Shown here: one piece after another, positions 14,235 to 24,130 of the stretch
Layout: each line of letters starts with the position of its first letter
Position numbering within the stretch: the stretch's first letter is position 1
Assembly: GCA_037189525.1 (NCBI GenBank)
Contig: JBBCJC010000005.1
Span: 1,088,001 to 1,152,000, forward strand
DNA: 64,000 bases
DNA from: Gemmatimonadales bacterium
GTDB taxonomy: Bacteria; Gemmatimonadota; Gemmatimonadetes; Gemmatimonadales; GWC2-71-9
Direction: 5' to 3'
The notes under the pieces: model-generated
What the model saw: the letters and a program-made list of their open reading frames with translations, nothing else
Told to the model about the DNA's origin: nothing
Database searches by the model: none
Made by a program: the position numbers and the translations under genes

Positions 14235-14582
14235 TCACCGTGGATCGTGCGGCGTCAGGATATCCTCGAGCCGGTCGTCACGCGACAGCAGGTCATCCTC
14301 CGGGAAATCCGTTGCATTCTTCGTCGTTCGGTCCTTCGGATCGGATGACTCATCACGCCGTCCCGGGTTGGTGGGCCGATTCGGATCGTTGGGGCGATTC
14401 GGATCGTTCGGCCGGCTCGGATCGTTGGGTCGATTCGGATCGTTGGGACGGCTCGGGTCGTTGGGCCGGCTCGGGTCGTTGGGACGGTTCGGATCGTTCG
14501 GCCGGTTCGGGTCGTTGGGCCGATTCGGATCAGTCGTACGGTTCGAGGACGGGGTCCGTTCACGTGCTGTTTCGTTTGCCAT
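14235..14582 (-). CDS. Small low-complexity protein with nine DP[N/S]RP[N/T] repeats
   Basis: GGAGG RBS before the ATG; variation between repeat units is mostly synonymous in this frame; co-oriented upstream of the DUF892 gene. Confidence 0.7.
   Translation of the reverse strand: MANETARERTPSSNRTTDPNRPNDPNRPNDPNRPNDPSRPNDPSRPNDPNRPNDPSRPNDPNRPNDPNRPTNPGRRDESSDPKDRTTKNATDFPEDDLLSRDDRLEDILTPHDPR
14370..14531. repeat. 18-bp tandem repeat, 9 copies (encodes DP[N/S]RPN)
   Basis: Units such as GTTGGGCCGATTCGGATC recur in tandem with point variants. Confidence 0.95.
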
Positions 14583-18382: not shown

Positions 18383-18532
18383 CAGTAGTGGAGGCGTTGC
18401 GGCGCACATTCGCTAGCGGCAGGGCCATCGGATCGTACCGGGCCAGACAAGGTGATACTACGCACGCGACGACCCGGCCGAGTACTTCTCGACCGGGTCG
18501 TCAGTCCGCTGCCATCGATGATCCGGCGCGAC

Positions 18533-19228
18533 TCATGCCGCCCGATCCTCGGTGCCGGTAACCGGCGGCGTGATACCGGTGTCCCGCGTCTTGCTGCGGA
18601 ACGGACCCAGCACGTTACGCGCACCTACCCAGGCGCCTAACGGCTCCGCATCGCCGGCAAAGCGGGTCCGGTTGATCACGTCCATCAATCCGACCAGTTC
18701 CATGATCTCCGCAGTGACCTCGAACAGCTTGGCTCGGGCGCCCATGTGCTCTCGTCGGCCGGCGTTGGCGCGTTCGGTGGCGGCCTCGAACCGGTTGAGG
18801 GCGTCGGTCACCAGGTCGAGGTGATCGGCGGAGAGGCCGTGCCTTCTCAGCAACTCCTGGTGCTCCCGGGCGGCGGTAACGAGATCCCAGCCCCGGGCCA
18901 GAAACGCTGCATGGGACATGCGTCGTCCCGGCATCCGGAACCGGCCCGCGATATCCGGATTCTCGCGGGCAGCCAGGTCGGCCACCTTGCGAAGGTACCG
19001 GATCATCGCGACCTCGATATCCTGGCGCACCTGTCGGCGACGCCGGGTGGCTGTGGCCGAGCCCAAACGGCCGGATTGTTCCTGCACGGCGAGCGACTGC
19101 GCCCGGGTGACCAGGTCACCGAAGCGGGCGCCGATGGCCAGGTGGCTCGGGTCCGTGAAGGGGTGGGCAGTGAGAAAGTCACGAACCCGAACGGCCATCT
19201 CCAGTTTCCTGCGCGCGCTGCTCAACAT
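18533..19228 (-). CDS. Hypothetical all-alpha-helical, Arg/Ala-rich protein (231 aa)
   Basis: AGGAG RBS before ATG 19228 (MLSSARRKLEMAVRVRDFL...). The longer upstream extension in the ORF track is low-complexity Pro/Ser text and probably not translated. Confidence 0.75.
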   Translation of the reverse strand: MLSSARRKLEMAVRVRDFLTAHPFTDPSHLAIGARFGDLVTRAQSLAVQEQSGRLGSATATRRRRQVRQDIEVAMIRYLRKVADLAARENPDIAGRFRMPGRRMSHAAFLARGWDLVTAAREHQELLRRHGLSADHLDLVTDALNRFEAATERANAGRREHMGARAKLFEVTAEIMELVGLMDVINRTRFAGDAEPLGAWVGARNVLGPFRSKTRDTGITPPVTGTEDRAA

Positions 19229-19523
19229 ACGACGACTCCTTTCGGGAACCACATCGCCGCGGACTCCCGGGGTCCGCGTCGCGTGCGCCGCCGACGAGGG
19301 GCGACCGGGTTCCCGGGACACCGGGCCGCCGGATGCGGACGAAGCGAAGATTGGACCAGGGCCGAATGGAGTCGTGTCGCCGGATCGGTTGGGTTGCCCG
19401 CTCCGAACGCGGATCTCGTTGTGAGACACGGAGTAAGGCGCCGAAGCACGAATGGAATACGGTAGCTCCGGCGGATCGGATTGCGCGGCGAGAGACCGTC
19501 GGGCGTGTCCACTTTCATGGACA
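19229..19523 (-). other. Hairpin-rich putative structured leader or ncRNA upstream of the 19228 gene
   Basis: Nested inverted repeats 19243-50/19308-15, 19254-58/19300-04, 19258-64/19272-78, 19373-78/19425-30; C(UUCG)G tetraloop on the minus strand near 19438-49. Confidence 0.45.
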
Positions 19524-19553
19524 TGAGTGTCCAGGGGAGGAGTCAACGCTTCT

Positions 19554-19995
19554 GGAGCAGTCACCGGAAATGAAGGACCTCGGGCCGGATGATTCGGAGA
19601 TGCGGGTGAATCTGCAGGAGCGAGCATCGGATCGGGCTGACTTGTCGTCGACAGTGGGGGACTTGTCGCCGGATGATATGGACCGGCTGCCGACAGATGC
19701 GGATTGGCGAGTGAGCGGGATGGACTTGTCACCGAGCGATGGGGATAAGGAGCCTGAAGATGGGGGACTGGGGATCGGTTGATGTGTATCGGCGGTCGGA
19801 TCGAGCGGAGTAGTGATCGGTCGGGTTGGAGCGGGGGTCCGCAGTGGTGGACCAGAGACCGGCAGTGATGGCGACGCACACTGCGGTGGTGGATCAGAGG
19901 CAGAAGTGGTCGGAGACGGAGCCGGATCGGGAGGACTGGTCGGTTGGCAGAGTGGAGCCGCCGACCACCGGAATGGCCAGCAGTTCCTCCTCTCG
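19554..19995. repeat. Degenerate array of 20-21 units with 21-nt period (GGA-N3-G-N2-R-N-CGR-N7)
   Basis: Unit starts at 19554, 575, 596, 617, 638, 659, 680, 701, 722, 743, then a +1 slip and 765, 786, 807, 828, 849, 870, 891, 912, 933, 954, 975; 17 of the first 20 begin with GGA. Confidence 0.88.
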
Positions 19996-20001
19996 ACTCG
20001 G

Positions 20002-20235
20002 CTACCGTGACCAGCGGAACCCGGCGTAGAACGAGCGTCCGTCCGACGGTTCGTAGAACTGACCGACGGCGTTGTCGATCTGCACCGACGCGGAGTATCG
20101 CTCATTGGTCAAATTCTCGACCGCAGCAAACAACGTCAGCCCTCGACTGGCCAGCAGGTACTCGGCTCGGACGCCGAACACGGTCCATCCGCTATTCTCG
20201 AGAGTATTTTCGCTGTCCACAAAGTAGCGTCCGGG
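20002..20235 (-). pseudogene. C-terminal fragment of a TonB-dependent receptor
   Basis: 'YFVDSENTLENSGWTVFGVRAEY...LTLFAAVENLTNERY...FYEPSDGRSFYAGFRWSR' matches the last barrel strands (NLxxxxY, GRxxxxGxxW); no upstream barrel or plug. Confidence 0.75.
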
Positions 20236-20309
20236 GTCAATCGAGCACGACATGCTTGATCCGAGTGCAGTAGATCTCAGGCTGCCAGCAAGGGAGTTGA
20301 CGTGTCTGT

Positions 20310-20495
20310 TTATTGCTCCGTCGACTCCAGAACGTCGGCCGGCGCAACCGCCTCCCAACTGCCGTTCCGGGCAATAATCAACCTGGTCCCGGTCGAGGCG
20401 GCCACTTCCCGTGCCCGCCTGGCAGCGCGGCGCAGCGCCGGCAGCGCATCTCGAAGCTCGGGCGTTCTCGCCTCTTCGATCGGTTTCCGATTCAT
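20310..20495 (-). CDS. Small hypothetical protein (61 aa)
   Basis: GAGGGG RBS before the ATG; coherent helix-strand-strand sequence MNRKPIEEAR...ALRRAARRAREVAASTGTRLIIARNG. Confidence 0.6.
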   Translation of the reverse strand: MNRKPIEEARTPELRDALPALRRAARRAREVAASTGTRLIIARNGSWEAVAPADVLESTEQ

Positions 20496-21846: not shown

Positions 21847-22035
21847 CAGAGAAGCGCCGCACCCATTACTGATCCGGTGGGCGCGCAACGACGGTCAATC
21901 GTCGCCGGCAGCCGGAAAGGGGGTAGCCACCGGCAGTTCCCGCCAGAGTCGTTAGGCAGACGCCGGAGAACAAAAGGCGAACACCTTGCCACCGCAATAC
22001 GTCGGTTCTCAGCTTGGAGCTACGGACTCACGACG

Positions 22036-23014
22036 ATGTATCGATTGAGGTTCCCGTTTCGTCCCGTCGATGAGACGGCACAGTTTTCCGAGTCGATCAA
22101 CCTCCGGTCGGCTGGCTTCACCGCGTCACTTCAGCCACATCTTCCGTACGTTGTGCTTAACCTCGATGGCTTTGAGTCAGTAGAGAGCGCCAGTGATGCG
22201 TTCCCGTTGGCCTGGGGAACCATTATGGTCGCCTCCGTACTCGCCAACTGCGGCTTCGGGATCGAAGCATCGTTAGATCGGTTATACATACCTTCACAAC
22301 CGCTCGACCCTGAGACCATTACAGCATCCATTGGGCTGCGCGTCTCTGACGCCTGTTCACGGTATCGCGAACGGTAACGTTCCCATTGTGGTACCGGCCA
22401 CCGGAAAAGTGATCTACGCTACCACCGGCGATGTAACACTGAAGCGATCGTCACCCATCGCTCGCCTGGTACCGTTCATCGAGCAAGCACTCTCGATTCC
22501 TGGCACCGCGCATGCCTACATTAACGACCGCCTCAGACTCGCGTTCGATCTTTGGGCAGATTATCACAGAGAACAGCGCCTTCGGGCGAAGTTTCTGACT
22601 CTCGTAATGGCACTTGAAGCTTTGGCCGAAACGATTCCCAAACATCCTGCTGCTGTCGCGCTACTTGACCGATGGGCCAAGGAAGCAACAACCGAGCTCA
22701 GCAATTGGGCACCCGACACAGAGGAGTACGAGGCGATCGAATCTGTTAGGCGAGAACTTCTGGTACGGCGACATCGCTCAATCAGGAGCCGGATCCAATC
22801 CCATATCACCGGAGTTATCGATGCCGTTCAGCCGGGAGAAGGCACCCGCATCGCCAAACTCGCACGAACTGCGTACGACCATCGGAGCACACTACTGCAC
22901 ACTGGAGCGATTTCGTCGGCTGCCTTGAGCGAGGGTCATACAGTCGCGTTGACTGCGCTACGCGCAACCCTCCTTGCTTCCCTTGGGGTTTCGCCGCTGA
23001 CCATCGCTTGCTGA
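22036..23014 (+). pseudogene. HEPN-like (ApeA-type architecture) gene split by a frameshift near 22350
   Basis: Frame 1 MYRLRFPF...GLRVSD joins, after a +1 shift, PVHGIANG...KFLTLVMALEALA...AYDHRSTLLHTG (RxxxxH). The second ORF has no convincing start of its own. Confidence 0.65.
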
Positions 23015-23077
23015 CCAACGTTTGGGATACACGACCCTTTGAACTAGGATCGAACCTCTCCAGGAGTACCGACCATC

Positions 23078-24130
23078 GTGGGCCTCACTGATTTTACGAT
23101 CGAAGCAATGGGATTTCGCCGCATGCCCCCAGAGAAGGCGGTTTCCGCTGCGTTTCATAGCCTAACTACCTTCGAAATTCGGGGCCTGAAACTGGATGAA
23201 CGAGAATCAGTCGAGAGTGCGGCCAGCACTGTCAGCGATGTTCCCTACCGTATTGCATTGGGACCCTCTCCGAATCGGCTCGCACGACATCTTATAGATG
23301 ACGACCTAGTAGATGACGAGTCGCGATGGCTGGCAGAATCCAAGAGCACCCCGCCGTTTCTCATGCTTCACATCGGACTCCCGGAAATCCATGAGGTGCG
23401 AGGAGCCTACGTCCGAGACGAGCCAAATCGGATATTGACATACGGGGCATTCGAGTATGCGAAGGCGAAGCTGAAGAGGGCTGAAGGTATCGTCGTTCCT
23501 AACATTGCCTCCGCATTCACATGCGAGTTCAGCCACTTTAGCCCAACAGTCAGTCTCAAGCAGGTAAGCCGAGATGTCTACGGCATAACACCAGATGGGC
23601 GGACCTTACACGACATTCGGATCGAGGTCCGAGGTTCACTATCGACTGCACAACGCATCAGCCCAAACACCACACAAGCTTACCTTAGTCGTTCGACAGA
23701 TCTAGCCGCCTCACTCAAGTCGGCAGTATCTCAATTCCTTCACCTTGCGTTCGACGAAAAAGATCAACTCAAACGGTTCTTGTACCTTTTCTTTGCCCTC
23801 GAGCGAATCACACATACCACATTTGCGTCGATCGACCTTGATCGCCATATGTCACGACTATCCGAGGTTTCTAGACGGACTTCAAAACCTCGAGATCAAC
23901 CGAGGGAGTGGAAGACGCTCCAAGATCGGTTTGCCTGGTGTTCAGTCGTCGTCTGGACACAGCTTACCGACAACGACATAGCAACCTTTCGAATGCTCAA
24001 GAAGGTCAGAGACCGACTGGCCCACGGCGAGATTACGGCACCGCCAAGTCCATCTGTGCAGGTAATCGAAGATCTCGTGAAGAAGCTCCTCCGCCAAGCC
24101 GATCCCGTCACCACACACCTACAGACGTGA
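23078..24130 (+). CDS. HEPN-like domain protein
   Basis: AGGAG RBS before the GTG; C-terminal 'KRFLYLFFALE...LKKVRDRLAHGE' (RxxxxH); lower GC than the flanks. Confidence 0.72.
   Translation: MGLTDFTIEAMGFRRMPPEKAVSAAFHSLTTFEIRGLKLDERESVESAASTVSDVPYRIALGPSPNRLARHLIDDDLVDDESRWLAESKSTPPFLMLHIGLPEIHEVRGAYVRDEPNRILTYGAFEYAKAKLKRAEGIVVPNIASAFTCEFSHFSPTVSLKQVSRDVYGITPDGRTLHDIRIEVRGSLSTAQRISPNTTQAYLSRSTDLAASLKSAVSQFLHLAFDEKDQLKRFLYLFFALERITHTTFASIDLDRHMSRLSEVSRRTSKPRDQPREWKTLQDRFAWCSVVVWTQLTDNDIATFRMLKKVRDRLAHGEITAPPSPSVQVIEDLVKKLLRQADPVTTHLQT

Follow-up and report, generated by a model that had tools for sequence, protein, structure and literature searches.

Described systems with periodic arrays

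Plasmid iterons and partition centromeres such as parC and sopC are repeat arrays with cognate proteins, which often regulate their own synthesis. The module analysed here lies in the window, that is the whole stretch of 64,000 nucleotides under study, and consists of a 21-nt repeat array on the minus strand and an adjoining gene for a 231-aa protein. On the present reading it may work in the manner of an iteron or centromere array whose cognate protein is autoregulated, here set before a sigma-54 promoter. Common to both are direct repeats about two helix turns apart, an adjoining gene for a small basic protein and a specificity particular to each system, and the 21-nt repeats are phased on one face of the DNA as iterons are (10.5-nt harmonic, z 8.4). 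Unlike iterons and centromeres, the module is chromosomal, reaches about a dozen copies per genome and had no match on viral contigs or plasmids in narrow searches. Its units (22 rows in the window) share a mean identity of only about 43-45%, and the protein has no helix-turn-helix, winged-helix or ribbon-helix-helix fold. Recurring Rep, ParA or ParM neighbours were not found within about 1.5-4 kb of 139 loci.

TIGR-Tas and VIPR also combine a degenerate periodic array of fixed and variable positions with one dedicated gene. The module differs from both in its period of 21 rather than 36/18 or 5, in the lack of box C/D and GGY motifs and in the position of the array before the promoter. A 36-nt dual-repeat unit as in TIGR-Tas was not found (period 18 in 5 of 116 loci, no excess at lag 36), nor was the 5-nt GGY/NN period of VIPR (-0.005 at lag 5 in 45 arrays). 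Searches of Pfam and of PDB sequences gave no Nop-domain match, and the domain is missing from the fold lists, which excludes nothing; 2 of 39 members of the protein family touch an IS110 model at E 0.004-0.02. CRISPR loci have near-identical repeats, unique spacers, a period of about 60-79 nt and cas genes, and the array, with its period of 21 and low unit identity, is not of this kind; it also differs in look from the real CRISPR array of the same genome. A survey of periodic arrays with a genome language model names no 21-nt class in its accessible part, although some periods divisible by 3 had been filtered out by the method (10.64898/2026.10.21.760802).

Sigma-54 promoters with upstream activator sequences, such as those served by NifA, FhlA, Clostridiales activators and, at norV, NorR, share with the module the -24/-12 consensus and a TGT-N12-ACA element, here about 157 bp upstream. 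Known sigma-54 enhancers comprise few sites with a common motif, whereas here about 20 phased units are added that are unlike the palindrome and specific to each locus. The promoter parts are of known kinds. The pairing of an unannotated protein family with a fast-changing 21-bp array of fixed geometry is classed as new because none of the tested families holds such a pairing. A literature search, mostly of openly readable full texts, found no description of the module; the supplements of the array survey cited above may list a 21-nt cluster. The explanation preferred here, held with slightly more doubt than belief, is that the protein, induced through sigma-54 and soon degraded, covers the phased array beside its gene and represses the promoter from which it is expressed.

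A degenerate 21-nt array upstream of the gene

~19540..19981, minus strand: degenerate direct-repeat array, most likely non-coding, of about 21 units of 21 bp, recognised by autocorrelation and family comparison

The original prediction had described a 21-nt periodic array on the minus strand, and autocorrelation confirmed it: over positions 19540-19995, compared with 1000 shuffles, z was 8.0, 7.7, 5.9 and 6.2 at lags 21, 42, 63 and 84. The array is the top stretch of the window at both lag 21 and lag 42. A 7-nt periodicity, which had also been suggested, is absent from it (z -1.0 at lag 7, no peak at 14) and from 45 pooled arrays. Tandem Repeats Finder does not detect the array. Four columns carry the same base in 19-21 of the 22 rows, a second patch 10-11 nt further on does so in 16 rows, and the register shifts once by 1 nt, near 19750. 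Across loci the median array length is 389 nt, and 20-nt units occur in some arrays.

Loci were fetched for 70 of about 110 genome matches, for the best 80 of 254 confirmed metagenome loci, for 30 loci of the genus and for 8 regions. After removal of loci without the 5' end of the gene or with less than 700 nt upstream, and of 24 near-duplicates, 116 non-redundant loci remained; this set and all family counts include one locus (L020) from a genome marked as unpublished (G057). A 21-nt array lies upstream of the gene in 86 of the 116 loci, compared with 7 of 101 downstream regions and 4 of 400 random genome windows, and nine other periods were found by the same test in 1-5 of the 116. The co-occurrence that the original prediction proposed to check therefore holds, with the periodic tract in the same position. 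All three paralogues in the genome of the window have an array. Among the loci titled Planctomycetota that have enough flank, three of four have mixed 20/21-nt units (best lag 41).

The array is associated more closely with the gene than with sigma-54 promoters in general. Of 77 sigma-54-like sites in the genome, many of them probably due to chance, a family paralogue is the only one with an array, and among the 29 loci that lack a full sigma-54 site 18 retain the array, many of them with the -24 half kept. Most arrays can be regarded as separate sequences, because below about 70% protein identity the upstream regions no longer align (0 of 995 pairs at 60-70%); related loci are nevertheless not independent. 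Array profile similarity is 0.29 for protein pairs below 60% identity, 0.35 at 60-70% and 0.44 at 70-80%, and pairs from the same genome (0.295) hardly differ from other pairs (0.289). From these comparisons the array motif appears to track the protein lineage and not the genome. Together with the pairing itself and the association of array with gene, this supports a protein that coats its own array. Plain shared descent also predicts a motif that tracks the protein, however, and the Mantel rho between motif and protein is only 0.09. Further points against such a protein are the 30 of 116 loci without a detectable array, an array without a gene in the genome of the window (C5:573465-573950, beside a tRNA-Pro gene) and the weak sequence constraint on the array. 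The constraint is judged weak because array diversity is at the level of third codon positions (0.185 vs 0.141).

Within the clade of the window, palindrome, promoter, ribosome-binding site and 3' hairpin can be aligned, whereas the arrays cannot. At the syntenic locus L081 the units are unalignable to those of the window, and the period, the position and a TCC core are kept. No universal array motif was found across loci, which lean only slightly towards a CG(A)TC-like sequence (0.39, null 0.35). The conserved bases of the unit recur 10.5 nt apart, giving the harmonic quoted above. This harmonic is the strongest in 26 of 75 arrays, while period 3 is strongest in 2 of 75, and coding controls lack it (power 0.05 vs 0.17). 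The pattern matches contacts along one face of B-DNA; the a/d spacing of a heptad peptide would look similar. Column conservation is uneven, with z above 2 in 25 of 75 arrays and below -2 in none, a z that is inflated by the choice of the best nine-unit block per array. Over a distance of 8 units little of the similarity between units is lost (0.186 at lag 21 and 0.106 at lag 168). Uneven columns, the 10.5-nt harmonic and this long reach of similarity are in agreement with a protein bound along the array.

The same data bear on the improbable alternative that the array is a by-product without a reader, formed beside these genes by minisatellite-like amplification of a 21-mer and then left to decay, with the protein or the way in which the module moves as a possible cause. 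Divergence is indeed near neutral, young near-perfect arrays (L046, L064) coexist with fully decayed ones (the L106-L164 clade), and the solitary array beside the tRNA-Pro gene would be accounted for. Indels of unit size (21, 42 and 84 nt) were observed and could be explained by residual micro-homology; they were for this reason rejected as independent proof of selection. A by-product would not be expected to show a single period in more than 80 loci with unrelated consensus sequences, at a fixed position and similar length, nor uneven columns with a 10.5-nt harmonic. The units of L081, which keep period, position and TCC core without being alignable, argue against it as well.

Reading frames within the array

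A period of 21 nt equals seven codons, and an array encoding a heptad-repeat peptide, as an N-terminal extension of the protein or as a separate ORF on either strand, would give a pattern of about 10.5 nt through its a and d positions. The frame of the gene is open through most of the array of the window (448-aa ORF), and two database proteins were called with N-terminal extensions derived from arrays. Stops are rarer in arrays than in column shuffles (496 vs 566), and weak period-3 signals were detected for G+T (z 2.7) and pyrimidine-purine steps (z 2.9). The stop deficit persists when C and G are swapped, and a stop-free frame is present in 71 of 75 array blocks, where 69 are expected.

Several observations nevertheless make such a peptide very improbable. 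The 45 pooled arrays show no excess at lags 3, 6, 9 or 12. In a clade of 15 members, diversity by codon position is flat in the array (0.185/0.188/0.219) compared with the gene (0.049/0.037/0.141), and stops occur in all six array frames in 11 of the 15. The wobble contrast is -0.19 +/- 0.11 for arrays and +0.8 to +2.0 for five coding controls. The amino-acid signal of arrays (2.48) is about equal to that obtained with a scrambled code (2.18-2.30), in a weak test in which coding controls also kept most of their signal. Shifts of 1 nt are the commonest change of register, and some units are 20 nt long. Register shifts comprise 112 non-multiples and 31 multiples of 3, sizes that are near random, so that only the excess at +/-1 is informative. 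The array is most likely non-coding.

Predicted promoter DNA between array and gene

19343..19359, minus strand: sigma-54-type -24/-12 promoter (GG-N10-GC), 131 nt before the ATG, 16.7 bits on the family matrix
19505..19533, no strand assigned: palindrome TGTCC-N8-GGACA (19506-19523) with an extra half-site (19525-19533), candidate upstream activator sequence
19413..19422, minus strand: short motif with a CAACGA core, at about -190, common to the clade of the window
19229..19332, minus strand: putative 5' UTR of about 100 nt with Shine-Dalgarno sequence, start site deduced from the promoter
18468..18502, minus strand: strong hairpin after the stop codon, without a U-run, probable 3' end of the transcript

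The spacer of 290 nt between array and gene had been predicted to be a hairpin-rich structured leader. It folds like its shuffles (z -0.53; 5' UTR part z -0.67) and an Rfam search gave no family match, so a structured-RNA leader was rejected for the window. In a set of 87 loci the UTR has only a slight folding advantage over shuffles, with z -0.91 compared with -0.41 for control DNA. To judge from its motifs, the spacer is probably mostly promoter DNA, with a sigma-54 promoter and an activator-type palindrome, followed by the 5' UTR of about 100 nt. Of the three-part module that had been proposed, array and protein thus recur together, and the leader gives way to promoter and palindrome.

Of the 116 loci, 87 have a sigma-54 site of at least 8 bits, a count that does not change when the seed of the respective locus is omitted; among 232 control stretches there was none. 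The element lies about 130 nt before the ATG, or about 100 nt in one clade. In the window the centre of the palindrome lies about 157 bp before the -24 box. The palindrome has the consensus GTGTCCtC-N4-GAGGACAC (58 sites) and occurs upstream in 60 of 116 loci compared with 4 of 101 downstream regions; it is not enriched elsewhere in the genome. Published activator motifs have the form TGT-N10-12-ACA and lie mostly 100-250 bp upstream, according to the accessible part of the source (PMC6615313), and both the TGT-N12-ACA frame and the distance of the palindrome agree with them. The genome of the window encodes sigma-54 and 15 full-length matches to activator-type ATPase domains; no recurring activator gene was found among the neighbours of the loci. 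At the other end of the transcript, the 3' hairpin has z -3.9, with 0 of 200 shuffles as good, and by eye comparable hairpins follow the genes of clade members.

In 60 of 68 loci the array stops short of the -24 box, on its upstream side, a position that favours function as DNA over function as RNA. It also weighs against the quite improbable alternative of a periodic RNA that is transcribed from the array and coated by the protein, its variable bases serving as guide or scaffold as in VIPR or TIGR. That layout, as far as the accessible parts of the sources describe it, is the one seen in TIGR (PMC12045711) and VIPR (10.64898/2026.04.26.720927). The array resembles it in that fixed patches alternate with variable bases, repeats are specific to each locus, a dedicated basic protein adjoins and the orientation of the array is constant within clades. 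The only conserved promoter, however, lies downstream of the array, and a sigma-54 site pointing into the array was found in 1 of 83 loci in sense and 1 of 83 in antisense direction. There is no universal repeat motif and no RNA structure (folding z -0.02 in the window, mean z -0.1 over 40 arrays), and the 10.5-nt sub-period fits B-DNA. The missing matches in viral contigs and plasmids, within the narrow searches made, point in the same direction, as may the missing Pfam match to a Nop domain.

If DNA is the functional form, the array might be read by the host instead of by the product of the gene. An activator oligomer or an architectural protein would then use the geometry of the array for phased wrapping or as a spacer platform that separates activator site and promoter. 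This is unlikely, but the location of the array end upstream of the -24 box speaks for it, as does the fact that 33 of 94 arrays have a palindrome at one end or at both. NorR moreover requires three sites and flanking DNA, as stated in the accessible part of a study of that activator (PMC2831303). Against it, arrays from one genome resemble each other no more than they resemble arrays from other genomes, and the other sigma-54-like sites have no array. The spacing of palindrome and promoter is not phased at 10.5 bp (Rayleigh z 2.5, n=39), and A/T or flexible-step periodicity at 10.5 nt was not found in the array. The units lack dyad symmetry (0.380 vs 0.374-0.381), and the half-site of the palindrome is not enriched in them (rank 38 of 90). 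For these last two reasons, the array was rejected as a set of amplified activator sites of the NorR multi-site type.

The encoded protein and its relatives

18533..19228, minus strand: gene for a basic, all-helical, internally duplicated protein of 231 aa with a disordered Ala-Ala tail (candidate ClpXP tag)

The predicted minus-strand gene and its ribosome-binding site are present, with the Shine-Dalgarno sequence AAAGGAG at 19236-19242. The protein has 39 close relatives, and clustering at 50% identity gives 1327 clusters for the family. Comparison with Pfam, NCBIfam, PHROG, PADLOC and PDB sequences yielded no assignment; as had been foreseen, the module lies outside standard annotation and the protein falls in no characterised family. 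A PHROGs search with family members gave no useful match, and the PADLOC profile PDC-M40C matches 4 of 39 members (best E 2e-4). DUF6261 (PF19775) matches 0 of 39 members and was found in 0 of 61 genomes, many of which have the family, and no control genome matched either. The profile of the uncharacterised PQLLE family (NF052641) is colinear with the family over about 165 residues and reaches E <= 0.1 in 13 of 39 members (best E 2.6e-5). Its best score of 24-25 bits lies far below the curated cut-off of 80, so membership was rejected and PQLLE is at most a remote relative. Structural look-alikes in the Atlas come from Bacteroidota (0.93) and Myxococcota (TM 0.75). Together with the weak PQLLE match they suggest a wider superfamily.

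The relatives are hypothetical proteins and, by database names and record titles, mostly from Gemmatimonadota, in line with the original prediction; five matches lie in records titled Planctomycetota or Brocadiaceae. The family is present in at least 32 of 151 genomes sampled across the phylum, in at least 30 of 71 in the taxonomic family of the window and in 20 of 22 genomes of its genus. Up to at least 12 matches per genome occur in the phylum sample, in which 18 candidates were scored per genome, so that family counts are lower bounds. A single-protein scan across genome contigs gave no match, and no longer fused forms were found among 8000 scored candidates, which is weak evidence.

The structure check that had been suggested gave a confident AlphaFold model (pLDDT 87.7), all-helical with two long helices and a disordered C-terminal tail (pLDDT <50), and no Foldseek match at E <= 0.001. 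The two halves of the protein form a remote internal two-fold repeat (hhalign P 0.001). Among solved structures the sensor bundle of McpS comes closest (Z 10.9, rmsd 3.3 A, 181 aligned residues, 11% identity), without reaching significance for a helical bundle. In McpS and TorS the helical bimodular (HBM) sensor domain is a similar duplicated bundle, with two long helices and short ones; unlike these sensors, the protein stands alone and, by eye, has no obvious membrane or export segment. The wide fold list contains no named DNA-binding family, though such an absence excludes none. A fold in which no DNA-binding motif is recognised and whose best match is a sensor-type bundle counts against a protein that coats its own array.

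The charge of the protein points the other way, for the family has a median pI of 9.5 and conserved Arg patches at residues 6-20 and 58-88. These features, the internal repeat and the Ala-Ala ends are what a short-lived array-binding protein might have. About a tenth of the family, however, is not basic (pI <6.5). Ala-Ala forms the C-terminus of 173 of 212 database relatives, compared with 29 of 1360 background ORFs, and of 137 of 161 genes read from loci. The genome of the window encodes ClpX and a tmRNA tag that likewise ends in Ala-Ala. The tail is a candidate ClpXP degron, an assignment that is likely but not sure because Ala-Ala was necessary and not sufficient in an E. coli screen, where a preceding Pro was disfavoured, as the accessible part of that source reports (PMC10862746). 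Pro-Ala-Ala is the commonest end in the family (78 of 212 relatives), which counts against rapid proteolysis.

Neighbouring sequences

20002..20253, minus strand: C-terminal remnant of a TonB receptor, neighbour outside the module

The truncated TonB-receptor tail noted behind the array was recovered as a remnant that matches Pfam PF00593 at E 0.009, below the cut-off, and has 43% identity to the final part of another ORF of the genome, 713 aa long. It does not belong to the module. The remnant is regarded as a bystander because it is absent at L081 and because a contig from run X2 bridges the region, with 886 nt from the ribosome-binding site to the next large gene compared with 1354 nt in the window. 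Runs X3 and X4 yielded short low-depth pieces only. Over 139 loci the neighbours are variable, with a Uma2-type nuclease near 10, an integrase near 4 and Fic near 3. Apart from accessory neighbours, no sign of a role in defence was seen.

Proposed function

A protein that coats its own array and shuts its promoter would make the module a self-contained unit for pulses of stress-type expression. A host enhancer-binding activator would bind the palindrome and fire the sigma-54 promoter, and one shared activator could turn on all paralogues via the common palindrome. The product, a basic helical rod, would line one face of the DNA in its 21-bp array, with one protomer or dimer on every two helix turns. 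By covering or looping the activator site, the filament so formed would repress the promoter. ClpXP would recognise the Ala-Ala tail and remove the protein, which would return the unit to its starting state. Array and protein would drift together, each paralogue retaining its own motif. The presence in the genome of sigma-54, activator-type ATPases, ClpX and a tmRNA tag ending in Ala-Ala is consistent with this mechanism.

A more far-reaching form of this explanation is possible but rather doubtful. The modules would be widespread cognate pairs, in which a new helical DNA-binding fold polymerises on an array phased at two helix turns and diversifies together with it, many pairs per genome being under one sigma-54 activator, timed by proteolysis and each forming its own filaments. 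In that case the filament might be a switch, an anchor or a trap, perhaps at solitary arrays too, and together with PQLLE-like and FN3-fused relatives the system would span several phyla.

If host factors read the array, the module would instead be a variant of the sigma-54 enhancer. If the protein reads its own array, it would represent a new DNA-binding fold. The family would then be a natural library of more than 1000 divergent protein clusters with matching sites, from which a recognition code might be learned and orthogonal genetic switches derived.

Variation in the upstream regions of family loci

In the loci L007, L060-L062, L096, L099, L114, L130, L156 and L165, which encode relatives of the basic all-helical protein, the sigma-54 site (GG-N10-GC) retains its -24 half, with CC replacing the GC at -12. 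These loci possibly carry a variant promoter. The homologues titled as Planctomycetota (L201, L202 and L205) share a different upstream motif, GCATTTTTC, at about -160, which stands where a clear sigma-54 site is missing.

Candidate activator palindromes or their half-sites also occur several in tandem, as clusters (positions relative to the ATG):

L031, -654 to -553
L190, -307 to -262
L034

Spacings within these clusters are 12, 22 and 43 nt, and the clusters are positioned up- or downstream of the array of degenerate direct repeats. The best upstream period at L029, L069 and L034 is 22/44 or 43 instead of 21/42.

Repeat arrays elsewhere in the genome

Two further arrays are located in the genome containing the window:

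G000:C5:573465-573950 (L088), solo array of ~24 units of 20-21 nt, immediately upstream of a tRNA-Pro gene
G000:C13:1-3100, long CRISPR array

The units of the solo array are well preserved and have a TGTCA-like core; a family gene, a sigma-54 site and the palindrome are all absent nearby. The repeat of the CRISPR array has a type I-E appearance.

Neighboring genes and other features of the window

Uma2-type nucleases adjoin 10 of the 139 family loci, and an integron-like integrase (Phage_integrase and SAM_4 domains) adjoins four (L014, L037, L070 and L175). Within the window, three further features were recorded:

14235-14582 (-), 115-aa ORF flanked by two DUF892 genes
20311-20495 (-), 61-aa ORF between the TonB-receptor remnant and the 400-aa gene
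21877-24130 (+), low-GC patch (47-57% GC) containing three ORFs

The 115-aa ORF harbors an 18-nt tandem repeat in ~9 copies of the Pro-Asn-Arg-Pro-Asn-Asp type. A Pfam search assigned no family to the 61-aa ORF, which may resemble small proteins encoded beside zeta-toxin-like ATPases. The three ORFs of the low-GC patch are likewise without Pfam matches. As this patch is missing from the syntenic locus L081, it represents a separate insertion into the same hotspot.
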